Source: Elusimicrobiota bacterium (GTDB lineage Bacteria; Elusimicrobiota; Elusimicrobia; UBA1565; UBA9628). From it: DNA of 64,000 nucleotides. Under the pieces are notes generated by a model. It ran no database searches. It was given only the letters and a program-made list of their open reading frames with translations, and was not told the origin of the DNA. Below are positions 34,305 through 44,920 of this stretch, one piece after another; positions within the stretch are counted from its first letter, which is position 1; each line of letters opens with the position of its first letter. The stretch covers positions 12,162-76,161 of the forward strand of contig JACPOW010000051.1 in the NCBI GenBank assembly GCA_016191335.1, in the 5' to 3' direction. A program made the translations under genes and the position numbers.

Positions 34305-35296
34305 TCCTGCTGCTCGCCGCGTCGCTCGTGGGGGCGGCCGAGACGCCGGCCAAGGTCATCAAGGCCGTGACCTTCAACGCCGCGGGCATACCCCTCGTGC
34401 ATCCGCGTCTCGCCGCGCGGCTCCAGGGCTGCGGGAAGGCGATCGCCGTCGGCGGCTTCGACCTCGCGGGCCTCCAGGAGCTGTGGCGCGACAAGGACAG
34501 CGCCGCCCTCGCCGCGGCCTCCGGCCTGCCCCACGCCGCCCGCTTCCATCGCCGCCTCGCCTTCCGCACCGGCCTGACCATCCTCTCGCGCTGGCCGATC
34601 GTCCGGACCGAGGAGCGCGCCTTCACCGTCGTGCGGCCGTCCCTGCGCCACCTCGCCCAGGGGGAGCTCGTCGCGGGCAAGGGATATTTGTTCGCGCGCG
34701 TCGGCTCGCCGTGGGGGGAGCTCGACGTCTACGCCGCCCACACCTTGGCCGATTACCCCGAAACCCGATACCATCTGCTCCGCCTGACCGAGCTGTTCGA
34801 GCTCGCCGAGGGCGTCCTCGAGCTGTCGGCGGGCCGCCCGTTCGTGATCCTGGGAGACCTCAACTCGGGGCACGGCGACCGCGAGTACGACCTGTTCCTC
34901 GACCTTCTCGGCCTGAGCGACCCGTGCGCCCCCGCGGGGGTCGAGGCCTGCGGCGACCCGCGGCGCCCGAAGCGCATCGACCACGCCCTCGTCCCGGGCC
35001 GCCTCGCGGCGAGCGCGGCGCGCGTCTTCGACGATTCATTATCGGACCACTACGGGTTCGCCGTCGAGCTGCCGCGGGCCCTGATGTCCCTGCGCGCCCA
35101 GCCCGACCCGAAGCGCCGGGCGGCCGCCCTGCGCGCCGTCGAGGACGAGACGAGCGAGGCGATCGAGCGCTTGGAGGCCGAGGGACGGCGCGCGTCCTGG
35201 GTCCCGCTTTACGGCACGTTCGTGTCGGCGCGCTACGCGCGCCAGGCGGCCAGGCTCAGGGCGATCCGCGAGCGCGCCGCGTCCGCGCGGCGCTAG
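34292..35296 (+). CDS. endonuclease/exonuclease/phosphatase (EEP) family protein, secreted
   Basis: Signal peptide, then TFNAAG, GLQELW, ILGDLNS and SDHYGF motifs typical of the EEP/sphingomyelinase-like fold. Confidence 0.75.
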   Translation: MAPLILLLAASLVGAAETPAKVIKAVTFNAAGIPLVHPRLAARLQGCGKAIAVGGFDLAGLQELWRDKDSAALAAASGLPHAARFHRRLAFRTGLTILSRWPIVRTEERAFTVVRPSLRHLAQGELVAGKGYLFARVGSPWGELDVYAAHTLADYPETRYHLLRLTELFELAEGVLELSAGRPFVILGDLNSGHGDREYDLFLDLLGLSDPCAPAGVEACGDPRRPKRIDHALVPGRLAASAARVFDDSLSDHYGFAVELPRALMSLRAQPDPKRRAAALRAVEDETSEAIERLEAEGRRASWVPLYGTFVSARYARQAARLRAIRERAASARR

Positions 35297-36441
35297 ACCG
35301 CGTCGACGACGCGGGAGTCGGCCATCAGGTCGTGCCAGCCGCGGCGCTGCGGCTCGAACAACGCCCAGAGATAGCCGAGGCCGCCCGCGTAGCCGGACAG
35401 AAGGGACACCGCCGCGCGCATGGCCCGCTGCTTGCCGTCGAGCGGGCCGCCGTCGAGCGCGACCACCTTGAGCTTCAAGAGCCGCTTGCCCGGCGTCGTC
35501 CCGAGCTTCTTCAGGAACACGACGGTGTAGACGAACCAGACCAAGGAGAAGCCCCAGCCGGCGAGCCAAGGCCGGTCGTCGGCGGCGTCCTTCGTCACCT
35601 TCAGGCCGTTCTTCCGGTCGAAGTGGACGACCGCGGATTCGCCGTTGACCTTGACGCCCGTGGCGTCGATCGAGACGCCGGTCGTCTTCGGCGCTTCGCG
35701 GAGACGGATGTTCAAGCCCTGGCCGGAGACCACACTGAGCAGCAGCAAGCAGAAAACGCCGTCGAGCAGCAGGGCCGCGAAGCGTTTCAAGGTGGAGGGG
35801 ACGCCCGCGTTCACGAGAGAGGCTTTCGCGCCCCCGGGCTGGAAGGCGGGGGCCGCCGCCCTCGGCGGGATCAGCCCGAAGAAACGGGACTTCACGGCCT
35901 CGGCCGAGGCGCCGACGGGCTCCTCGCGGCGGACCTTGTAGACGCGGATCTTCTCGGGGATGCCCTTGAGCTGCATGAGGCCGATCTCGCTCGAGGGGAC
36001 CTCGGATTTGTTCATCGCGAGGTAGACGGCCTCGGTGAAGTACACCTGCCCGGCCTCGGCGATGCCCTCGATGCGGGCGGTGATGTTGACCGCCTCGCCG
36101 AAGACGTCGTTCTCCATGAGGTTGACCTCGCCGGAGTTGATGGCGATGCGGATCTCGAGGCGGTCGGCGGCGGAGCGGCCCTCGTTGAGCTTGGCCAGGG
36201 CCTCCTGCACGGAGACGCCGGCGAGCACCGCGTTCGTGGGGCTCTCGAAGGTCATCAGGAAGGCGTCGCCGATGGTCTTGACCAGATGGCCGCCGCGCGC
36301 CTCGAGGAGGGGGAGGACGACGGCGCGGTGCTCGTCGAGCATCGTCGAGATCTCCGCGCGCGACTTCGAGGAGGTCTTGTCCGTGAACCCCTTGATGTCG
36401 GTCAGGAGGATGGTCAGGTGGCGCGTCGTCGGTTCGGCCAT
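35293..36441 (-). CDS. class III adenylate/guanylate cyclase fused to an RDD membrane domain
   Basis: LTILLTDIKGFT...KTIGDAFLMTF...INSGEV cyclase motifs, then a C-terminal multi-TM region ending GWHDLMADSRVV (RDD-like). Confidence 0.8.
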   Translation of the reverse strand: MAEPTTRHLTILLTDIKGFTDKTSSKSRAEISTMLDEHRAVVLPLLEARGGHLVKTIGDAFLMTFESPTNAVLAGVSVQEALAKLNEGRSAADRLEIRIAINSGEVNLMENDVFGEAVNITARIEGIAEAGQVYFTEAVYLAMNKSEVPSSEIGLMQLKGIPEKIRVYKVRREEPVGASAEAVKSRFFGLIPPRAAAPAFQPGGAKASLVNAGVPSTLKRFAALLLDGVFCLLLLSVVSGQGLNIRLREAPKTTGVSIDATGVKVNGESAVVHFDRKNGLKVTKDAADDRPWLAGWGFSLVWFVYTVVFLKKLGTTPGKRLLKLKVVALDGGPLDGKQRAMRAAVSLLSGYAGGLGYLWALFEPQRRGWHDLMADSRVVDAV

Positions 36442-36453
36442 GGCGCTATGATA

Positions 36454-38049
36454 TCACAGGCTCGAGCGGTAGGATTTCCCTAATGCGGCGAGCACCGCCT
36501 CGGCCGAGCGGACGCCCCGGTCCATCGCCTCCTCGAAGATCGAGAACCCGGACAGGTCGGAGTGGGCGAAATGGATGGGGCCGATGGGCTTGAGCGCGGC
36601 CTGGCGCTCGGCGCCCCAGATGAAGCCCGGCTTGGGCAGGATCATGCCGTGTCCCCAGACCCAGCCGTCGAACCGGCTCACGCGCTCGCGCAGGCGCGGA
36701 TGCGCGCGCTCCAGGTCGCGCAGGCACTCCTCGCGCCACTCCGCCAGGCTCCGCTTGTACGCGGCGGCGCGCTGGCCCTCGGGGTCGCCGGTCAGCGCGC
36801 GATAATAGGTCCACACCGCGCGCCGGCGGTTCTGCGAGAAGCTCTGGTGCGTCGCGTCGACGTAGCCGAGGCCCTCCCCGCTGTGGATCATGTTGTCCCA
36901 GGCGGGGGCGGCGCCGAGGCCGGACGGGGGGTTCTCGACGGTCAGGTTGGCGACGAACCACGGCGCGTAGGCGAAGCCCGAGGGCTTCGGGTCCTCGCGC
37001 AGGGGCTTGACGATGCGGCGCGCCGCGAAGCGGGGGGCGCAGACGATGGCGCGCTTGGCGAGAAGACGGCGCGTGGCGCCCGTGGCCGCGTCGTGATAGT
37101 CGACCCGGACGCCGTCCCCGTCCGGGGCCACGTCGAAGGCCAGCGCCCCGGTCCGCACGCGGGGGCCGAGCGCCTCCGCGAGCCTGCGCACGAGGAAGCC
37201 GTTGCCCTCGGGCCAGACCAGGTACTCGTCGTCCTCGCCCTCGCCGCGCGCGGCGTAGTACTGCAGGCCGGCCCAGGCCGAGACCTCGGCCAGCCCGCCG
37301 CCGAAGTCGTCGCGGCAGGCGTACTCGACGTACCAGCGCAGGGCGGGGGAGCGGAAGCCCTTCTCGTCGAGCCACGCCGCCATCGTGACGCGGTCGAGCG
37401 CGAGCAGCTCGGGGTCGCGCGAGCTGAGCTCCATCGGGATCGCGAAGGCGGGGCGGCCGTCCCGGCCGACGCGGCGGCGCAGCGCCGCGATCTCGGCGTG
37501 GAAGCGGTCGCGCTCCGCCAGGTCCGCGGCCGAGGCGCCGAGCCGGGGATACAGGCCCTCCTGCCACCGCCCGTGGATGTACAGGCGCTCCTCGGGGGCG
37601 TGGCACAGGACCGCCTCGTCGTACACGGGTTTGCCGCCCTTGTCGCCGACGATCACCTTCAGCTCGCGCAGCAGCTCGCGCACGGCGCGCGCGCGCGGGC
37701 CGGGGACCGGGAGGTAATGGGCGCCCCACGGGTACGGGCTCACCTCGTTCTCGCCCCAGGCCGCGTTGCCGCCGGCGCGGGCCTCGAGGTCGAGCAGCAC
37801 GAACCTTCCCTCCCCGGAGCGCAGGAGCTTCCAGCCCGCCGTCAGCCCCGCGACGCCGCCGCCGACGATCACGACGGGCACGCGCTCGGTCGAGGTCGGG
37901 GCCGGGAAGCCGCCGGCGCGCAGCTTATGTCCCAGGGCGTGATTCGGGCCCAGCAGCTCGCCCGGTATCCCGCGCTCCGTCCGGCAAGCCCCGAACGCCG
38001 CCGCCGCCAGCGCCCCGCCGATGAACTCCCGGCGGGTGAGGCCGGTCAT
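36454..38049 (-). CDS. FAD/NAD(P)-binding amine-oxidase-like oxidoreductase with Tat signal
   Basis: MTGLTRREFIGGALAAAAFGAC twin-arginine leader and dinucleotide fold VVIVGGGVAGLTAGWKL. ATGA-coupled to the SpeE-like gene. Confidence 0.75.
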   Translation of the reverse strand: MTGLTRREFIGGALAAAAFGACRTERGIPGELLGPNHALGHKLRAGGFPAPTSTERVPVVIVGGGVAGLTAGWKLLRSGEGRFVLLDLEARAGGNAAWGENEVSPYPWGAHYLPVPGPRARAVRELLRELKVIVGDKGGKPVYDEAVLCHAPEERLYIHGRWQEGLYPRLGASAADLAERDRFHAEIAALRRRVGRDGRPAFAIPMELSSRDPELLALDRVTMAAWLDEKGFRSPALRWYVEYACRDDFGGGLAEVSAWAGLQYYAARGEGEDDEYLVWPEGNGFLVRRLAEALGPRVRTGALAFDVAPDGDGVRVDYHDAATGATRRLLAKRAIVCAPRFAARRIVKPLREDPKPSGFAYAPWFVANLTVENPPSGLGAAPAWDNMIHSGEGLGYVDATHQSFSQNRRRAVWTYYRALTGDPEGQRAAAYKRSLAEWREECLRDLERAHPRLRERVSRFDGWVWGHGMILPKPGFIWGAERQAALKPIGPIHFAHSDLSGFSIFEEAMDRGVRSAEAVLAALGKSYRSSL

Positions 38050-39548
38050 CCGCCGTGGGTGATGCGGGCCCATTCGCGCTCGTAGTGCTGGACGAGGACC
38101 TGGGTGTCGAGGCGGTTGGGCTCGGCGGGGACGCGGGACATGTCGCCGGGGAAGTCGAACATGCCGCGCGCGATGTCGGGCGTGAGGTAGCGCAGGCCCG
38201 CGGGGAACTTCGACGGGACGCGGTACGGAGAAGTGGCCCCGATGACGAAGCCCCACTCGCCGAACGAGGGCACGTAGGCGTGGTAGGGGCTCGTCTTGAA
38301 CCCCGCGGCCTCCATCGTCGTCACCACGGTCCAATAGGTCTGCCGCGCGAACAGCGGCGAGGTGGACTGCACCGTGACGATCGCGCCGGGGGCCAGGCGC
38401 CGGCTCAGCAGGCGGTAGAAGGCGGTGGTGTACAGCTTGCCGACGGCGTAGTTCGAGGGGTCGGGGAAATCGACGATGACGACGTCGAAGCGGCGGTCGT
38501 TCTTCTCGAGCCAGCGGTAGGCGTCGGCGTTGACCACGGTCATGCGCGGGTCGGAGAGGGAGTGTCCGTTGAGGGCGGAGAGCGACCGGTGCGTGGTGAA
38601 GAGGTGGGTCATCACCGGGTCGAGGTCGACCAAGGTCACCGCGCCCACGCGCTTATCGCGCAGGACCTCGCGCGCGGCGAGGCCGTCGCCGCCGCCGAGG
38701 ATCAGGACGCTGCGGGGATCGGCGTGCGCGGAGAGGGCCGGATGCACGAGAGCCTCGTGATAGCGGTACTCGTCCATCGTGCTGAACTGAAGGTTGCCGT
38801 TGAGGAACAGGCGCCAGTCGTCCTTCCAGCGCGTGAGCACGATCTTCTGATAGGGGGAGGACTTGCTGAAGATGACCTCGTCGGCGTACATGTCGCCCTC
38901 GGCGCGGGAGGCGATCTCCCCGGAGAACACGAGGCCGAGGCACAGCGCCGCGGCGGACCCCGCGCACAGCGCGCGCAGGCCGGCGCGCTCCGGGATCGCG
39001 TCGCGCAGCAGGTGCAAGGTGGCGGCTGCGACGCCGACGTTGAGCAGGCCGAACAGCAGGGCCGTGTTGAGCAGGCCGAGCTTCGGCACCAGCAGGAGGG
39101 GGAACAGCACGGAGGCGAACAGCGCGCCGATGTAGTCCATCGTCAGGACCTGGGAGACGAGGTCCTTGAAGTCCAGGCGGTCCTTTAAAATACGCATCAT
39201 CAGCGGGATCTCGAGCCCGACCAAGGTCCCGACGACGAAGACGACGAGGTACAGCAGGACCCGGAAGCTCGCCGCGTGCGCGAAGGCCAGGAACAGGAAG
39301 GTCGAGGAGAAGCCGCCGACGAGCCCGACCAGGAGCTCGACCTGGACGAAGCGCGCGGCCAGCCCCTTGCCGACGAACCGCGACAGCCACGAGCCCACGC
39401 CCATCGCGAACAGGTACGCCCCGATGACGGTCGAGAACTGCAGGACCGTGTCGCCGAGCAGGTAGCTGGCGAGCGCGCCGGCCACGAGCTCGTAGATGAG
39501 CCCGCAGGTGGCGACCAGGAAGACCGAGGCGTACAGCGCGATGTTCAC
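38046..39548 (-). CDS. polyamine aminopropyltransferase (spermidine synthase-like) with N-terminal multi-TM domain
   Basis: About 200 aa of TM helices, then SPYQKI, VLILGGGDGLAAREVLR, VTLVDLDP and VVIVDFPDPSN motifs of the SpeE fold. Confidence 0.82.
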   Translation of the reverse strand: MNIALYASVFLVATCGLIYELVAGALASYLLGDTVLQFSTVIGAYLFAMGVGSWLSRFVGKGLAARFVQVELLVGLVGGFSSTFLFLAFAHAASFRVLLYLVVFVVGTLVGLEIPLMMRILKDRLDFKDLVSQVLTMDYIGALFASVLFPLLLVPKLGLLNTALLFGLLNVGVAAATLHLLRDAIPERAGLRALCAGSAAALCLGLVFSGEIASRAEGDMYADEVIFSKSSPYQKIVLTRWKDDWRLFLNGNLQFSTMDEYRYHEALVHPALSAHADPRSVLILGGGDGLAAREVLRDKRVGAVTLVDLDPVMTHLFTTHRSLSALNGHSLSDPRMTVVNADAYRWLEKNDRRFDVVIVDFPDPSNYAVGKLYTTAFYRLLSRRLAPGAIVTVQSTSPLFARQTYWTVVTTMEAAGFKTSPYHAYVPSFGEWGFVIGATSPYRVPSKFPAGLRYLTPDIARGMFDFPGDMSRVPAEPNRLDTQVLVQHYEREWARITHGG

Positions 39549-39552
39549 GGCG

Positions 39553-39774
39553 TCAGCCGATCATGGAGGCGGCGATGATGATGCCCATCGCGACCGAGAG
39601 CCCGGCCATCACGGTGGCCAGCGCCCGGTTCTGCTTGACCACGATCTCCTGCCAGAGGTCGTAGGGCGTGAGCTTGTCGAAGATCACGAACCAGGCGAAG
39701 AAGACCGCCGCGCCCAGACCGGAATAGATCACCGCCGCGACGAGGTGCTGCACGTCGAGTATGTTCTTCATCAC
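39553..39774 (-). CDS. DUF350-like small membrane protein
   Basis: 73 aa with two or three TM helices. Size and position next to the SpeE-like gene match the DUF350 pattern. Confidence 0.65.
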   Translation of the reverse strand: MMKNILDVQHLVAAVIYSGLGAAVFFAWFVIFDKLTPYDLWQEIVVKQNRALATVMAGLSVAMGIIIAASMIG

Positions 39775-39953
39775 TTTCCTCCGGAGTATCGATGATAGCT
39801 GGAATAATGCGACCGGTATGAGCCGGGATTGTCACGGACGGATTTCGGCACGCCGGCGACGCGCTCGACGGGGGTGATCCACCAGCCCGTCCACAGCGCC
39901 CACGAGGCCGCGGCGGCGACGAACAGCGCGTACCAGCGGTACCAGCGGCTCAT
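39771..39953 (-). CDS. small Trp/Tyr-rich membrane protein
   Basis: 60 aa (MSRWYRWYALFVAAAASWALWTGWW...). ATGA-coupled at its start, and its stop shares a base with the next start. Confidence 0.5.
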   Translation of the reverse strand: MSRWYRWYALFVAAAASWALWTGWWITPVERVAGVPKSVRDNPGSYRSHYSSYHRYSGGK

Positions 39954-41344
39954 TCGTCGTCCTCCTCGTCGTCCGAGGACGTGCGGGGATGGTCGCTTTC
40001 CATCCAGCGCGTGTTCTCGAACGAGTCGTGGCGCATGCCCGCCCACACCGCGGGGAGCAGCAGAAGCGCGAGCGCGATGAGCGGGAGGCGCTTGAGCGGC
40101 ACGTCCCGCCTCACGATGACGCGGAAGCTCAGCTGCGGCGCGTCCGTCTCCGGCTCGACGCGCAGGTAATAGCGCCCCGCGGGGACGCTCGGAACGAAGA
40201 AGGTCTCGTAGCGTCCGCCCTCGCTCCAGGACTCGCCGTCGTCCACGCCGTGGTAATAGGACAGGTCCCGGCCGAAGTCGAAGGCCTGGTCGGTGTCGGC
40301 GTCGATCAAGGCCATGCTCACGTACGCCCAATGCTGGTCGAGGTTCGTGTCCACCGTGACCTCGAGGTTCGAGGTGCGGCCCTTGACCTCGAACACCTCG
40401 CCGACGCGGGAGCGCTCGAGGTCGGCGGCCGTGACCTCGAAGCCGCCCTCGTACACCTTGGCCTTGGACGCGGTCGCCTCGACGAAGACGAAGACGCCGA
40501 CGCACAGCGCCGCGGCGACGCCGAAGCTCCGCCAGACCGACGGCAGCTCCCCGGCCCACGGGTTGGGCTGGGCGGGGGCGACGCCTATCTTGGCCGGGGG
40601 CGCGCCGGGCATGGCGAAGGCGGCCCAGACCTCCTCGGGCTCCATGTACTCGCCCGCGGTCCAGACCGACTCCGTCGCGGTGACCTCCTGCGACAGCAGG
40701 TACGGAGGGCAGATGAAATCGCGGGAGCGCGCGGCGTCGCCGACCTTGGCGACCCACGGGAACTCGCCGAGCACCGCGGTGGTCACCGGGATGCTGGACT
40801 GGAAGTGCCGGTAAAGGCGGCCGTCGAGCTCGACGGTGGGGGCGCGTTCCGCGTCGCGGTTCTGCGCGCCCTCCATCTCCGGCGGCACCGGAGCCTTGCC
40901 TTCCTTGACCTTGACCGCGGGCAGGGGAGGGACCGGGACGGCCGCCGGCGCGGCGGCCGGAGCGGCGCCCAGCGGAGCGGCGGGGGCCGCCGGCGCCGCT
41001 GGCCGCGACGGCTCGTCGCCTTTCTTGCCCGCGATGTTCTCGACGCCGGAGAGCTTGCGTAGGATCATGATCTCGCCCGCGTCGAACCACAGCGCGGAGC
41101 AGGTGGCGCACCGGTCCACCTCGATCTGGCCTTCGTAGGCGTTGGCGGTCTCCATCGGGCGGCGGCAGCGCGGGCAGTCGAAGCGGGCGGGCCTCGGGCC
41201 GATCAGCCGCAGCGGCACGGCGATGTCGTCCGCCTCGTACAGCACGCCCGAGCAGCCCGTGCAGGTGCGCACGACGATGCCGGAGGAGATCTCGACCGCC
41301 TCGAGCGGAGCCTGGCACTTCGGGCACTTCATGCTCTCAGCCAC
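39950..41344 (-). CDS. zinc-ribbon / DUF4178-like / C-terminal TM protein
   Basis: Two CxxC...CxxC ribbons (CPKC...CTGC; CPRC...CATC), a Pro/Ala linker, a DUF4178-like beta-rich core, a TM helix and an acidic tail. Confidence 0.65.
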   Translation of the reverse strand: MAESMKCPKCQAPLEAVEISSGIVVRTCTGCSGVLYEADDIAVPLRLIGPRPARFDCPRCRRPMETANAYEGQIEVDRCATCSALWFDAGEIMILRKLSGVENIAGKKGDEPSRPAAPAAPAAPLGAAPAAAPAAVPVPPLPAVKVKEGKAPVPPEMEGAQNRDAERAPTVELDGRLYRHFQSSIPVTTAVLGEFPWVAKVGDAARSRDFICPPYLLSQEVTATESVWTAGEYMEPEEVWAAFAMPGAPPAKIGVAPAQPNPWAGELPSVWRSFGVAAALCVGVFVFVEATASKAKVYEGGFEVTAADLERSRVGEVFEVKGRTSNLEVTVDTNLDQHWAYVSMALIDADTDQAFDFGRDLSYYHGVDDGESWSEGGRYETFFVPSVPAGRYYLRVEPETDAPQLSFRVIVRRDVPLKRLPLIALALLLLPAVWAGMRHDSFENTRWMESDHPRTSSDDEEDDE

Positions 41345-41726
41345 CGGGGGTTTCCTTCGGCTTGGTCTCGACGGTCTTGAGCAGGAGCCAGTGCCCGTTC
41401 GACTCGGTCATCCAGCGGAAGCCCTTGTACGGGTTCCAGAGCAGGTACTCGTCCCAGGAGTAGATCACGCCCGAGTAGCGCACGGCCCGGCGCTGGAAGC
41501 CGATGACCTCGAGCTGGTCGCCGCGCACGGTGCCGCGCGTGCCGATGGGGATCTTCGGCGTGACCCCGAGCTTGGAGCGGTACTTCGCCAGCACCTGATG
41601 GCGGGGGTCCTTCGCGTCGAGCACCGCGCCGCAATGCGGGCAGGCGAGGCTCTCGCTGACGCCCTCCGCGCGCAAGGTGAGCGGGCCGCCGCAGGCGGGG
41701 CAGTCGAAGCGGGAGCTCACGACCAC
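41337..41726 (-). CDS. DUF4178-like protein with N-terminal zinc ribbon
   Basis: CPAC...CPHC ribbon, then GT(V)RGDQLEVIGFQRR...WDEYLLW pattern. GTG 41726 or GTG 41720 (GTGA overlap). Confidence 0.65.
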   Translation of the reverse strand: MVVSSRFDCPACGGPLTLRAEGVSESLACPHCGAVLDAKDPRHQVLAKYRSKLGVTPKIPIGTRGTVRGDQLEVIGFQRRAVRYSGVIYSWDEYLLWNPYKGFRWMTESNGHWLLLKTVETKPKETPGG

Positions 41727-42343
41727 CCCTCGATGAGCTTGAGGCCGGTGAAGGAGAGCGCTTCGAACGCCTGGTATTCACCCGCGAACACCGACGGCGG
41801 GTCGTCCGAGTAATCGAGCGTGGCGAAAGCCCCGTCCTCGCCGATCAGGTCGGCGGAGGGCGCGGTCTCGCCGAGCGGCGGCTTGAAGGGGAGCTCGCCC
41901 TGGGCCGCGAGGTACTTGGCCTCGATGACCTCGCGGACCTGATAGGCCTTGCCCTGGATCTCGACCCGCGAGTCCACCTTGAGGTCGGCGAGCGCGGGGA
42001 CGGCGGCGTCCGCCTTGAAGCTCACCGCGTAGGTCCCCTGCGCCTCGCCGAGCCAGCCCTGGCGGCCGTCGTCGAACATCAGGCACCACTCGTTCCAGAA
42101 GCCGCGGGGCGTCCGCAGCTGCATCCGGCCGACGACCTCGAAGGACGCGCCGCGATAGCTCCCGCGGGAGCCGACCAGGACCGGGGACCCGTCGGGCTGG
42201 AGCTGGGCCGACTCACCGAGCGTCTCGAGGTCGAGGTCCTTGCGCTGGACGAGGCTGCGGCAGAACGGGCACACCGCCAGGAGGCTGATCGAGGCGCGGA
42301 ACGGGACCATCGCGCCGCAGGCGGGGCACTTGCGCTCGATCAT
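41717..42343 (-). CDS. DUF4178-like protein with N-terminal zinc ribbon
   Basis: CPAC...CPFC ribbon, then GSYRGASFEVVGRMQL...WNEWCLMFDDG pattern. ATGA-coupled start. Confidence 0.65.
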   Translation of the reverse strand: MIERKCPACGAMVPFRASISLLAVCPFCRSLVQRKDLDLETLGESAQLQPDGSPVLVGSRGSYRGASFEVVGRMQLRTPRGFWNEWCLMFDDGRQGWLGEAQGTYAVSFKADAAVPALADLKVDSRVEIQGKAYQVREVIEAKYLAAQGELPFKPPLGETAPSADLIGEDGAFATLDYSDDPPSVFAGEYQAFEALSFTGLKLIEGWS

Positions 42344-43443
42344 CGGGTTACAGGCATTATCGCGCTTGGAGGTGCCTCGGTCAAGCCGAGAATCCTCTCC
42401 CGGAGCCCGGGATTCGTCCCGTCGAAACGCCACAGCCAGGCGTCGAGCAGGTAGTGCGTCGCCTGCGGCAGGGCGAGCAAAGGGATGAGCAGGGCCGCCA
42501 GCGCGCCCGCCGGCGCCCAGTCCGCCGCCGCGCCGAAGTACACCTCCGCGTGCTCCTTCCAGACGAGGACGTCCCAGACGCCCTCCTCGGCGTAGCCGAT
42601 GACCAGGAGCAGGCCGACGAACAGGAACAGATACGCCGGCTTGTGCCAGGTCTCGCGCCAGCTCCCGTCCTTCCACGAACGGTTCCCGTACAGCCAGACC
42701 AGGGCATAATAAGGAATCCCGTGCGAGACGATGTTCGTCACCGTGAAGGCGAAGTCGGAGTTCGTCGCGACGATGCCGACATACCACGCGACCGCGGTGG
42801 ACGCGATCACGGCGACCTTGCCGGGATGGACCTCGAGGCCCAGCTTGCGCCGCGCGAGCTGGCGGCCGAAGAACGCGCCGAGGACGGCGGCGTAAAGCCA
42901 GCCGGCCCACGGGCCGGCCAGCTTGTTCAGATTCACGAAGTCGCCCTGCACGAACCACCAGAACTTCCGCGCGGGATCGGCGTGCCAGTACACGAGGGGA
43001 TAGAGCATGGTCGCGTAGATCGCCGCCGCCTCCAGGCGCGCTTCCCAAAGCTCCTTGCGCCCCTCGAGGTGAGAGTACGCGCGCATGAAGCCGTACTGCT
43101 GGCGCACGAAGTGATAGACGGCGAGATAGGCGAGCGCGCGCCAGAAGGTCAGCGCGGAGATCCGGTACAGCAAGGCCCCGCCGAGCCAGCAGGCCAGCGG
43201 CAGGAACACGTACAGCGCGCGGCGGCGGGGGAACTCCACCGGGTCGAGATAGGTCCGGTACAAGGTCGCGTACACGTGCCCCACGTCGATGAAGACGACG
43301 AACACGAGCCAGCCCCAGGCGGGGGTCTCGGCCGCGCGCAGCGCGGGGATCAGGAGCACGGCGAGCGCGGCGAGCAGGGGCGGCCCCGCGAACCAGCCGA
43401 GGTCGAAGGCGGGGGAGTGCAGCCACTTCCGCGCTTGGATCAC
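42340..43443 (-). CDS. integral membrane protein of unknown function
   Basis: Polytopic, about 9 hydrophobic helices, with conserved-looking YHFVRQQYGF. GTG 43443 is preferred because TATAAT (43455-43450) lies 6 nt upstream. The tracked ATG 43518 would overlap the divergent gene. Confidence 0.6.
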   Translation of the reverse strand: MIQARKWLHSPAFDLGWFAGPPLLAALAVLLIPALRAAETPAWGWLVFVVFIDVGHVYATLYRTYLDPVEFPRRRALYVFLPLACWLGGALLYRISALTFWRALAYLAVYHFVRQQYGFMRAYSHLEGRKELWEARLEAAAIYATMLYPLVYWHADPARKFWWFVQGDFVNLNKLAGPWAGWLYAAVLGAFFGRQLARRKLGLEVHPGKVAVIASTAVAWYVGIVATNSDFAFTVTNIVSHGIPYYALVWLYGNRSWKDGSWRETWHKPAYLFLFVGLLLVIGYAEEGVWDVLVWKEHAEVYFGAAADWAPAGALAALLIPLLALPQATHYLLDAWLWRFDGTNPGLRERILGLTEAPPSAIMPVTR

Positions 43444-43468
43444 GAGGCCATTATATGAGTATTGCGCG

Positions 43469-44920
43469 ATGGGCGGGCGCAGGCTATCCTTCGAGGGCAT
43501 GGCCTGGCGCGAGCACATCGAGCCCGACTGGTTCCACGAGGCGCCGTTCTACCTCGCGGCGCTCATCGCCCACGGCGCCTTGCTGACCGTCAACCCCGTC
43601 ATCGAGTGGGGCGGGCTGAAGGCGCCGGAGAAGGCCGTCCCGATCGAATTCGTCGCCGACATCCCGCTCCCGCCCATCGTCCAGCCGGTGACCGCGCCGG
43701 AGCTCCACCCCGGCGGCGACGGCTCCAACCTCCCGCCGAAGCACGGGCCGGGGGAGTTCGAGCGCGAGAAGGTCAAGCGCGGCGCCGTCGACCCGCCGCC
43801 CAAGCCCAAGCCGGTGAAGAAGCCCGCGGCGGTCAAGTCCAAGGTGAACAAGCCCGGCACCACCGTGCACAAGGCGAAGGCCGCGCCCAAGCCCCGCCCG
43901 CTGGCCCGGCCCAAGGTGGACGCCCAGGCCGTGAAGTTCGCGCGCGAGGCGCAGGCGGAGTCCAAGCGCCTGCGCGCGGAGCGCGACCGCGCCGCGCGCG
44001 CCGTCGAGGCGGAGAAGGCGGCCGCGGCGAAGGCCGCCGCCGTCGAGCTCGCTAACGAGAAGAAGCGCATCGCCGCCGAGAAGGCGGCGGAGGCCAAGGC
44101 CGAGCGCGACCGCTTCGCCGCCCAGCAGGCGGCCGAGCGCGAGCGCCGCGCCGCGATCGCCCGCGCCGAGGCCGAGCGCCGCGCCGAGGCCGCCCGCCAG
44201 GCCGCCGAGGCCCGCGCCGCCGCGCTCGCCGAGCAGAAGCGCCTAGCCGCCGAAGCGAAAGCGGCCAAGGCCGCCAAGCGCGCCGCGCTGACCTCGGCCC
44301 TGGCCACGATGGCCGACCCCGACGAGGCCCTCGAGGCCGCGCCGGCCCCGTCTCCCAGCGGACGCGGCTCGGCCCGCAAGGGACGCCCCGCAGCGGGCGG
44401 CCCTGTCGCGGGCAAGGGCGGCGACGGCGGCGCCTTCGGCGAGTCCGACTCCGGCGAGGGCGGGGGCAAGGGCGGCGGCGAGGCGGAGCTGGCCGGCGCG
44501 CGCAAGGCCGGCGCGGCCGCGGCCCTGGCCGAGTCCACCGACCCCGGCGACGAGGCCGGCAGCGGCGGCTTCGACCTAATCGACTCCAAGGCGCGCGGCG
44601 GCGGCATCGGGCCCGAGGGCGGCGGCGTGTCCTTCTCGGTGGACGGCCCCGTCGGCGACCGCCGCATCCTCACCCGCGTCGCGCCCACGAGCCCCGACTG
44701 GGTCGCCACCCGCAACCTCGACCTGACCGTCACCGTCCGCTTCCAGGTCCTGCCCGACGGCTCGGTGAAGCCCGGCGCCGTGATCTCGAAGACCTCCGGC
44801 TTCCCCGACATCGACACCCGCGCCCTCAAAGCCCTCGCCCGTTGGCGCTTCCAGCCCGTCGGCGCCAAATCCGGCGCCGCCGAGGTCTGGGGCCGCGTCA
44901 CCTTCCGCTTCACCTCGTGA
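43469..44920 (+). CDS. TonB-family protein with TolA-like Ala/Glu/Lys/Arg-rich central helix
   Basis: N-terminal TM anchor, Pro-rich segment, a long AEKAAAAKAAA...-type helix, a Gly-rich linker and a C-terminal TonB_C-like domain (VRFQVLPDGSV...ALKALARWRFQP). ATG 43499 is the alternative start. Confidence 0.75.
   Translation: MGGRRLSFEGMAWREHIEPDWFHEAPFYLAALIAHGALLTVNPVIEWGGLKAPEKAVPIEFVADIPLPPIVQPVTAPELHPGGDGSNLPPKHGPGEFEREKVKRGAVDPPPKPKPVKKPAAVKSKVNKPGTTVHKAKAAPKPRPLARPKVDAQAVKFAREAQAESKRLRAERDRAARAVEAEKAAAAKAAAVELANEKKRIAAEKAAEAKAERDRFAAQQAAERERRAAIARAEAERRAEAARQAAEARAAALAEQKRLAAEAKAAKAAKRAALTSALATMADPDEALEAAPAPSPSGRGSARKGRPAAGGPVAGKGGDGGAFGESDSGEGGGKGGGEAELAGARKAGAAAALAESTDPGDEAGSGGFDLIDSKARGGGIGPEGGGVSFSVDGPVGDRRILTRVAPTSPDWVATRNLDLTVTVRFQVLPDGSVKPGAVISKTSGFPDIDTRALKALARWRFQPVGAKSGAAEVWGRVTFRFTS

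Follow-up and report, generated by a model that had tools for sequence, protein, structure and literature searches.

An Elusimicrobiota form of a widespread operon encoding a predicted membrane aminopropyltransferase and a predicted exported amine oxidase

Operons that combine a seven-transmembrane (7TM) spermine synthase with DUF350 and DUF4178 proteins are already known from comparative genomics, and their function is open. Ravi et al. (2024, mSystems; PMC11237479) describe an operon with CesT/Tir-PspA, the 7TM-spermine synthase, YjfL/DUF350, a Ctha_1186 lipoprotein and DUF4178 (Shewanella SO_3765). They also list PspA-free variants, some with DUF4247/DUF2617 (Mycobacterium tuberculosis accessions), others with a Band-7 protein, S-adenosylmethionine (AdoMet) decarboxylase (AdoMetDC) and a polyamine oxidase. 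The related operons are tied there to PspA and Band-7 membrane-stress proteins, and polyamine monitoring or the aminopropylation of other substrates is proposed, citing Li et al. 2019. Here we analyse an operon of this type (positions 36454-43443, minus strand) in a window of 64,000 nucleotides (nt) from an Elusimicrobiota bacterium (GCA_016191335.1, contig JACPOW010000051.1, positions 12,162-76,161 of the forward strand). A previous interpretation of the window, called the sequence-only reading below, had pointed to DUF350/DUF4178/SpeE neighbourhoods in other phyla, which the paper by Ravi et al. bears out. No functional study of DUF4178, DUF350 or the Rv2597-Rv2601 genes was found in the literature searched.

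Judged from gene content and order, the locus is an Elusimicrobiota remodelling of this widespread, published cassette: the gene of a membrane DUF4178 protein is split and has gained zinc ribbons, another gene (g1) stands in front, the Band-7 and AdoMetDC genes have been lost, and a cyclase-RDD gene (g9) has been placed behind. One genome per species (185,579) was scanned with an alignment of the g4 family. This gave 508 loci with a g4 relative, of which the best 80 were examined, their gene order being checked by tblastn with the nine products of our locus. Most of these 80 loci come from Acidobacteriota and 21 from Elusimicrobiota (one labelled only 'bacterium'); the rest belong to Gemmatimonadota, one Planctomycetota, one Binatota and a few metagenome-assembled genomes labelled Pseudomonadota. 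The core order is the same in all phyla: a zinc-ribbon DUF4178 protein (g2), a membrane zinc-ribbon DUF4178 protein (g3 and g4 in our locus), a protein of 60 amino acids (aa; g5), a DUF350 protein (g6), 7TM-SpeE (g7) and a flavin amine oxidase with a signal for twin-arginine translocation (Tat; g8). Order and strand are kept in essentially every locus that is long enough, and the median gaps in the Elusimicrobiota loci are -4, -4, -8, -4, -4 and +8.5 nt. Since this tight spacing is conserved in relatives, it is not a matter of chance. The co-conservation that the sequence-only reading had left to a neighbourhood check was thus found for g2-g8. The same reading had regarded the periplasmic oxidase as an addition of this version of the operon; instead, the oxidase with its Tat motif and two zinc-ribbon DUF4178 proteins are core components in every phylum examined.

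The two forms of the operon differ at their heads. Outside Elusimicrobiota, genes for a Band_7_1 protein (with a zinc ribbon at its C-terminus) and for a class-1 AdoMetDC stand at the head. The AdoMetDC gene lies directly upstream in 54/54 non-Elusimicrobiota loci with enough upstream sequence versus 1/17 Elusimicrobiota loci, and the Band-7 gene in 49/54 versus 1/17. Neither gene is present in the operon of our window. A deeper-branching Elusimicrobiota locus (L042, 6782-9624) carries g1 and g2 on either side of an oppositely oriented gene for a Band_7_1 protein with a double zinc ribbon, with a weak AdoMetDC-like match upstream of g1; its gene arrangement may be intermediate between the two operon forms. 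In a sample of 201 genomes of the phylum, full-length g4 was found only in the genome of the window and in one congener, so the cassette is patchy within the phylum. In two Elusimicrobiota assemblies with long contigs (L038 and L049) the cassette genes are broken into several frames in tblastn, which looks like assembly indel errors rather than pseudogenes.

One change in the Elusimicrobiota form concerns the DUF4178 proteins. The soluble protein g2 (41717-42343, minus strand, 208 aa) consists of a zinc ribbon and a complete DUF4178 domain (PF13785, 53.6 bits, E 3.5e-14; gathering score 25 bits). Its family alignment has an invariant CxxC...CxxC pattern and the motifs WNEW, GELPF and a terminal EGW, and g2 is found in all examined loci long enough to show it. 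The next two genes each match one half of the domain. In g3 (41337-41726, minus strand, 129 aa) a zinc ribbon is followed by the N-terminal half (26.5 bits, profile positions 2-59 only), and g4 (39950-41344, minus strand, 464 aa) has the C-terminal half (19.4 bits, positions 68-136 only). Hence g2 and g3 pass the cut-off in the DUF4178 profile check, and g4 on its own stays below it. The rest of g4 is laid out as two zf-TFIIB ribbons (PF13453, 56.9 bits in two stretches) and a Pro/Ala linker before the DUF4178 half, and a transmembrane (TM) segment (274-292), a beta-rich acidic domain of 122 aa, a second TM segment (415-433) and an acidic tail behind it. As the ribbons and the DUF4178 half precede the first TM segment, the acidic domain between the two segments should be extracytoplasmic. 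Profile searches of the PDB with the g2-family DUF4178 alignment and with the g4 alignment returned zinc ribbons only, and the outer domain of g4 had no usable match in the ESM Atlas.

Beyond the close clade, g4 has homologues of about 430 aa that are each a single protein. They begin with a zinc ribbon and the N-terminal DUF4178 half, a part that closely resembles g3 and aligns with it; the C-terminal half comes next, and behind it the beta-rich domain between two TM segments and an acidic tail. One such unsplit orthologue (L051:9563-10891) contains a whole DUF4178 domain (81 bits, profile positions 2-134). The g3-like and g4-like parts are separate open reading frames (ORFs) in 13/13 Elusimicrobiota loci and one ORF in 55/57 other loci; the split form starts with the two extra zinc ribbons and the Pro/Ala linker. 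From the half-profile matches, the alignment to unsplit orthologues, the whole domain of the fused form and the ORF counts it follows that the operon encodes two DUF4178 domains, one of them split, and not three paralogous zinc-ribbon DUF4178 proteins as had been read from the window alone. By these sequence comparisons, g3 and g4 are proven to be one ancestral gene that was split in mid-domain and received two zinc ribbons. Their ancestor is a distant paralogue of g2 (about 25-30% identity in tblastn). That the split stems from a misassembly or a frameshift error is ruled out, because the split architecture is common to more than 100 protein clusters (40-88% identity), the junctions including g3/g4 are bridged without insertion or deletion by contigs of three independent metagenomes (groundwater, marine-labelled and wastewater), and the ORF counts separate the two forms. 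In an unrooted FastTree tree built from g7, a branch with support 90 has all 13 split-type rows on the same side, with a Planctomycetota row next to them; this is consistent with a single split event. The Elusimicrobiota form is therefore a clean natural case of a mid-domain gene split, and its retention predicts that the products of g3 and g4 reassemble.

The enzyme g7 (38046-39548, minus strand, 500 aa) is a seven-TM domain fused to a SpeE (polyamine aminopropyltransferase) domain, in agreement with the SpeE-like protein with an N-terminal multi-TM region that had been suggested before. By score, predicted fold and motifs it scores as a membrane polyamine aminopropyltransferase equivalog. 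NF002956 (PRK03612) matches residues 3-495 on profile positions 20-520 with 678.7 bits, far above the curated equivalog cut-off of 472 bits; NF037959 is also passed (43.4 bits, cut-off 40), and Pfam Spermine_synth reaches 123.7 bits. In the PDB, thermospermine synthase 6bq2 and Thermus SpeE 1uir are matched with E values of about 1e-33, and the YHE, GGGDG and DxxDP motifs are intact. These motifs and the polar TM residues Y19, E20, D33, E113, D138, Y139 and N170 are invariant among 23 orthologues. The AlphaFold2 (AF2) model (predicted local distance difference test score, pLDDT, 87.6) has seven TM helices followed by the SpeE fold, and Foldseek found SpeE structures (E 1.8e-17) with the SpeE half only, the 7TM domain having no match. 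Loops 2-3, 4-5 and 6-7 contain on average 3.0, 3.7 and 2.8 Lys and Arg residues, loops 1-2, 3-4 and 5-6 only 0, 0.7 and 0.8. With seven TM helices, this pattern places the SpeE domain on the outer side according to the positive-inside rule. In the 2019 work of Li, Kurihara, Kim, Liang and Michael (Biochem J 476:2579), related membrane-fused spermidine-synthase-like proteins reportedly made no spermidine. The same authors are said to have noted clusters of AdoMetDC, membrane-fused spermidine-synthase-like protein and DUF350, and to have proposed a non-polyamine acceptor; that study reportedly centred on MFS-type fusions, in contrast to g7, which is of the 7TM PRK03612 type.

The aminopropyl donor is available in the cell, to judge from the genome. 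No match to the AdoMetDC family PF02675 was found in the genome, which is 93.9% complete. Its sole AdoMetDC is a eukaryote-type class-2 enzyme (PF01536, 219 bits; contig C26, 37631-39412), encoded directly before a canonical SpeE (NF002010, 354.7 bits). Consequently, a lack of decarboxylated AdoMet in this organism is ruled out, and g7 is a second aminopropyltransferase. Elsewhere in the genome, at the end of another contig (C3:1-2639), there is a Band_7_1 protein with a C-terminal zinc ribbon that is 35% identical to the cassette-linked protein of L042; its neighbour encodes a protein of 459 aa with Tim44-like, zinc-ribbon and TerB/DUF533-like parts. PspA has only weak matches in the genome, on other contigs. 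A second DUF350 gene (C66:29613-30068, 235 aa with two DUF350 matches) lies beside an unrelated Fer4_20/Pyr_redox_2 iron-sulfur flavoprotein gene and was set aside as not belonging to the system.

The second putative enzyme, g8 (36454-38049, minus strand, 531 aa), is a lipobox-bearing protein with a flavin amine-oxidase fold and a Tat signal. Its N-terminus carries TRREFI and AFGAC, that is, a twin-arginine motif, a hydrophobic stretch and a lipobox Cys. The twin-arginine motif is found in 48/49 orthologues and the lipobox in 10/49, mostly from Elusimicrobiota. The AF2 model (pLDDT 87.7, predicted template modelling score 0.88) gave putrescine oxidase (PuO) 2yg6 as the top Foldseek match (E 5.6e-25), followed by a bacterial monoamine oxidase (MAO) with bound putrescine (9h5p), MAO-A/B and spermidine dehydrogenase (SpdH). 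PuO, MAO-A/B, bacterial MAO and SpdH make up the top 30 or more matches, with E values from about 1e-22 to 5.6e-25. PuO (2yg3/2yg6), 9h5p and SpdH (7d9f) share the two-domain flavin amine-oxidase fold of the g8 model (TM-scores 0.65-0.77); g8 differs from them in its low identity of 14-23% and in its Tat signal and lipobox. Both the model and the conserved gene order indicate that the predicted exported amine-oxidase-fold flavoprotein is a conserved core part of the cassette.

Between the DUF4178 and SpeE genes lie two small membrane proteins. The single-TM protein g5 (39771-39953, minus strand, 60 aa) has a VPKSVRDNPGxYR motif and ends with Gly-Gly-Lys. Counterparts occupy this position in 78 loci from several phyla and always have 56-65 aa and one hydrophobic segment; in public records the protein is annotated as 'hypothetical protein' and has no Pfam family, and our searches of Pfam and NCBIfam found no family match. 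The motif VP[KR][ST][VI]R[DN]NPG[AS]YR is present in 78/78 of these proteins, the C-terminal residue is Lys in 78/78 (preceded by Gly in 76, as GGK in 67), and exactly 13 residues separate the motif from the C-terminus in 70/78. Two topology criteria disagree: a rule based on flanks of 15 residues places the tail outside in 61/79 cases, and the net charge of the whole tail (+3.8) argues for the cytoplasm. The neighbouring g6 (39553-39774, minus strand, 73 aa) is a DUF350 (YjfL-family) protein with two hydrophobic segments, a half-size form that matches profile positions 3-66 of 133 (PF03994, 54.4 bits; gathering score 26 bits). This confirms the DUF350 assignment made previously, and g6 is conserved in position across the examined loci.

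Two further genes mark the Elusimicrobiota form. The polytopic His/Tyr-rich membrane protein g1 (42340-43443, minus strand, 367 aa) belongs to an unannotated family. It has no Pfam or NCBIfam match, its more than 3342 homologues of about 355-367 aa are all named 'hypothetical' without Pfam, and the ESM Atlas returned only unnamed clusters. In 13 Elusimicrobiota loci the gene immediately precedes g2, an arrangement that none of the other phyla examined shows; by its position, g1 is a head gene specific to the Elusimicrobiota operons. At the other end, 12 nt downstream of g8, g9 (35293-36441, minus strand, 382 aa) encodes a class III nucleotide cyclase with an RDD membrane domain (Guanylate_cyc 68 bits, RDD 88 bits). 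It occupies the same place in the five closest Elusimicrobiota loci (L033, L035, L036, L038 and L039) and is absent elsewhere among the examined loci. Thus, g9 is probably a clade-specific ninth gene of the operon. A TATCAT sequence is found just upstream of its ATG, and plus-strand genes converge on its 3' side.

All eight ORFs from g1 to g8 have a coding-type GC content at third codon positions (GC3) of 0.83-0.96 in the called frames. The g1/g2, g4/g5, g5/g6 and g7/g8 junctions are overlaps of 4 nt (42340-42343, 39950-39953, 39771-39774 and 38046-38049), g2/g3 and g3/g4 overlap by 10 nt (41717-41726) and 8 nt (41337-41344), and a gap of 4 nt separates g6 from g7. If g3 started at the in-frame GTG at 41720, it would have 127 aa and a 4-nt GTGA overlap with g2, in agreement with the position at which the alignments of relatives begin. 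The GTG start of g1 at 43443 agrees with the lengths of its homologues. Taken together with the short junctions in relatives, the region is a real, tightly packed operon as far as can be judged from the DNA; the eight minus-strand genes and the operon structure of the sequence-only reading stand, and its junction coordinates were reproduced exactly. A perfect TATAAT hexamer, read off the sequence 6 nt before the g1 start (43450-43455, minus strand), is a possible candidate promoter of a near-leaderless transcript. A consensus scan found a promoter-like TTGACC-17-GATAAT site within the end of g1, just upstream of g2 (42356-42384, minus strand), with 10/12 consensus matches; the region contains two such sites compared with 0.3 expected. 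Together, the two elements suggest that leaders are very short and that g2-g8 may be transcribed separately. A look-up of RNA runs listed none that contains the locus. The start of a divergent TonB_C gene (43469-44920, plus strand) lies only some 25 nt away from that of g1; such closeness means that the promoters of both genes must overlap coding sequence or each other's leader.

For the whole set we favour, with a confidence only slightly above even, an envelope operon that couples membrane aminopropyl transfer by g7 to periplasmic amine oxidation by g8, with non-catalytic partners and remodelling in this clade. In this proposal, g7 would move the aminopropyl group from decarboxylated AdoMet, supplied in this genome by the class-2 AdoMetDC on the other contig, to an amine that is held at or passed through the conserved 7TM domain. 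The oxidase g8 would be exported in folded form with its FAD, lipid-anchored in this clade, and in the periplasm would oxidise an amine, which could be the product or a turnover form of it. Both DUF4178 proteins, g5 and DUF350 would be non-catalytic membrane partners, acting as scaffold or regulator or, in the case of g5, perhaps as acceptor. The remodelling consists of the mid-domain split of the membrane DUF4178 gene with the two added zf-TFIIB ribbons, the loss of the Band-7 and AdoMetDC genes from the head of the operon, and the placing of g1 in front and, in the closest relatives, of g9 behind; the proteins g3 and g4 would have to reassemble. The 'polyamine-modifying or sensing complex' of the sequence-only reading is reasonable as a hypothesis.

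Several points weigh against this proposal. The predicted outer location of the SpeE domain is unexpected for an AdoMet-derived donor, as decarboxylated AdoMet is not known to be present on that side. The ordinary speD-speE pair elsewhere in the genome means that sequence cannot separate ordinary polyamine synthesis from a special role. The assignment of g8 as an amine oxidase draws on a predicted fold: Pfam Amino_oxidase (PF01593) gave no match to g8 at E values up to 0.01, NAD_binding_8 (38.2 bits) and FAD_binding_2 match its N-terminal part only, and PDB sequence matches to L-amino acid oxidase and MAO reach about 1e-4 at best. Hence, of the amine-oxidase-like Tat protein claimed previously, the fold (as modelled) and the twin-arginine motif stand, and the Amino_oxidase profile does not support it. 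The roles given to DUF4178, DUF350, g1 and g5 are guesses from position.

As an alternative, the products of the cassette might be ordinary free polyamines, made and trimmed at the membrane: g7 would release spermidine or a longer or branched polyamine to the envelope, g8 would back-convert or degrade the excess, and the other proteins would regulate. All g7 motifs are kept, its nearest structures are thermospermine synthase and the broad-specificity SpeE of Thermus, the nearest folds of g8 are putrescine oxidase, putrescine-bound MAO and spermidine dehydrogenase, and AdoMetDC stands inside the operon in other phyla. We nevertheless consider this unlikely, because the genome already has a canonical speD-speE pair and would not need a second membrane system with seven partners for the same product; moreover, PMC11237479 cites Li et al. 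2019 for aminopropylation of non-polyamine substrates. Such a substrate might be encoded in the operon. The outer-face SpeE domain, fed with decarboxylated AdoMet via the 7TM domain, could aminopropylate the C-terminal Lys of g5 or a lipid head group, and the exported oxidase could remove or mature the added group; this we regard as quite unlikely. In a narrower form, g7 and g8 would be a writer/eraser pair on a membrane-anchored peptide, g7 modifying the invariant C-terminal Lys of g5 (or another amine of its tail) and g8 removing or oxidising the group. In favour of this, g5 is the sole small partner kept in every phylum, with its Lys end and the mostly fixed distance to the motif; its gene is coupled in translation to the DUF4178 and DUF350 genes on either side, and its tail would lie outside by the flank rule, on the side predicted for the SpeE domain and g8. 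The tail charge, however, argues for the cytoplasm, so that enzyme and tail may face opposite sides, and a conserved terminal Lys could equally be a binding or anchoring feature. Moreover, no SpeE-type enzyme is known to aminopropylate a protein, and the narrower form is decidedly doubtful.

A role mainly in sensing the state of the envelope or external amines would assign the input to the outer domain of g4 and the oxidase, the transmission to the zinc-ribbon/DUF4178 proteins and, in the clade with the cyclase-RDD protein, a cyclic-nucleotide output. The layout of g4 is sensor-like, with ribbons on the cytoplasmic side, two TM segments and, outside, an acidic domain that contains invariant residues. 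The cyclase gene lies at a distance of 12 nt in six genomes, and related operons are tied to the membrane-stress proteins PspA and Band-7 in PMC11237479. Two intact enzymes with conserved catalytic motifs and an AdoMetDC within the operon elsewhere nevertheless point to chemistry and not only to sensing, the cyclase occurs in a small subclade only, and the core is without a DNA-binding or kinase output. Consequently, sensing as the main role is very unlikely. Finally, high-GC DNA yields many long spurious ORFs, and the genes could be chance neighbours or miscalled. This is hardly credible, given the GC3 values in the called frames and the family, fold or cross-phylum homologue support for 7/8 products, and the order and spacing conserved in 80 loci refute it.

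Returning to the favoured coupling of aminopropyl transfer and amine oxidation, the locus bears on the product of bacterial membrane-fused spermidine-synthase-like enzymes, an open question posed by Li et al. 2019 and taken up again in PMC11237479. Together with its relatives, the locus defines a compact cross-phylum set of partners for which any answer has to account: a predicted exported amine oxidase, two zinc-ribbon DUF4178 proteins, DUF350 and a Lys-ended protein of 60 aa. If aminopropylation at the outer face were true, it would be a new reversible modification of the envelope.

Among described systems, the yjfIJKLMC type of E. coli has a glutathionylspermidine-synthetase-like ATP-grasp ligase and a PspA homologue beside DUF350, and our operon has neither ATP-grasp ligase nor PspA. 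The ydjFGHL type of Bacillus subtilis (PspA, a zinc-ribbon Band-7 protein and the two-zinc-ribbon membrane protein YdjG) shares the theme of SPFH proteins together with membrane proteins that have cytoplasmic zinc ribbons; it is without polyamine enzymes, DUF4178 and DUF350, and the likeness, taken by description, is one of layout only. In Mycobacterium tuberculosis, DUF4178, DUF350 and a membrane SpeE are encoded together in Rv2597-Rv2601, as in our locus. This type includes DUF2617 and DUF4247, neither of which was matched in our eight products, and no amine oxidase or 60-aa gene has been reported there. The PspA-free variant with Band-7, AdoMetDC and oxidase (PMC11237479) resembles our locus in DUF350, the polyamine-type enzymes, an amine oxidase (g8) and the absence of PspA, but has Band-7 and AdoMetDC in its operon. 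Its Band-7 protein is described with two TM segments and SHOCT, whereas the relatives of our locus have Band_7_1 with a C-terminal zinc ribbon; the text examined does not mention a 60-aa gene, a Tat signal or a split DUF4178 gene. With the SO_3765-type operon of Shewanella oneidensis (supplement of PMC11237479), our locus shares 7TM-SpeE, DUF350 and DUF4178 encoded together. It is without the PspA, CesT/Tir, Ctha_1186 lipoprotein and RHH of that type, and PspA_IM30 and CesT had no Pfam match in the eight products. Unlike the SO_3765 type, our locus encodes another DUF4178 protein, which is anchored in the membrane, as well as the small protein with the Lys end and the predicted Tat-exported amine oxidase.

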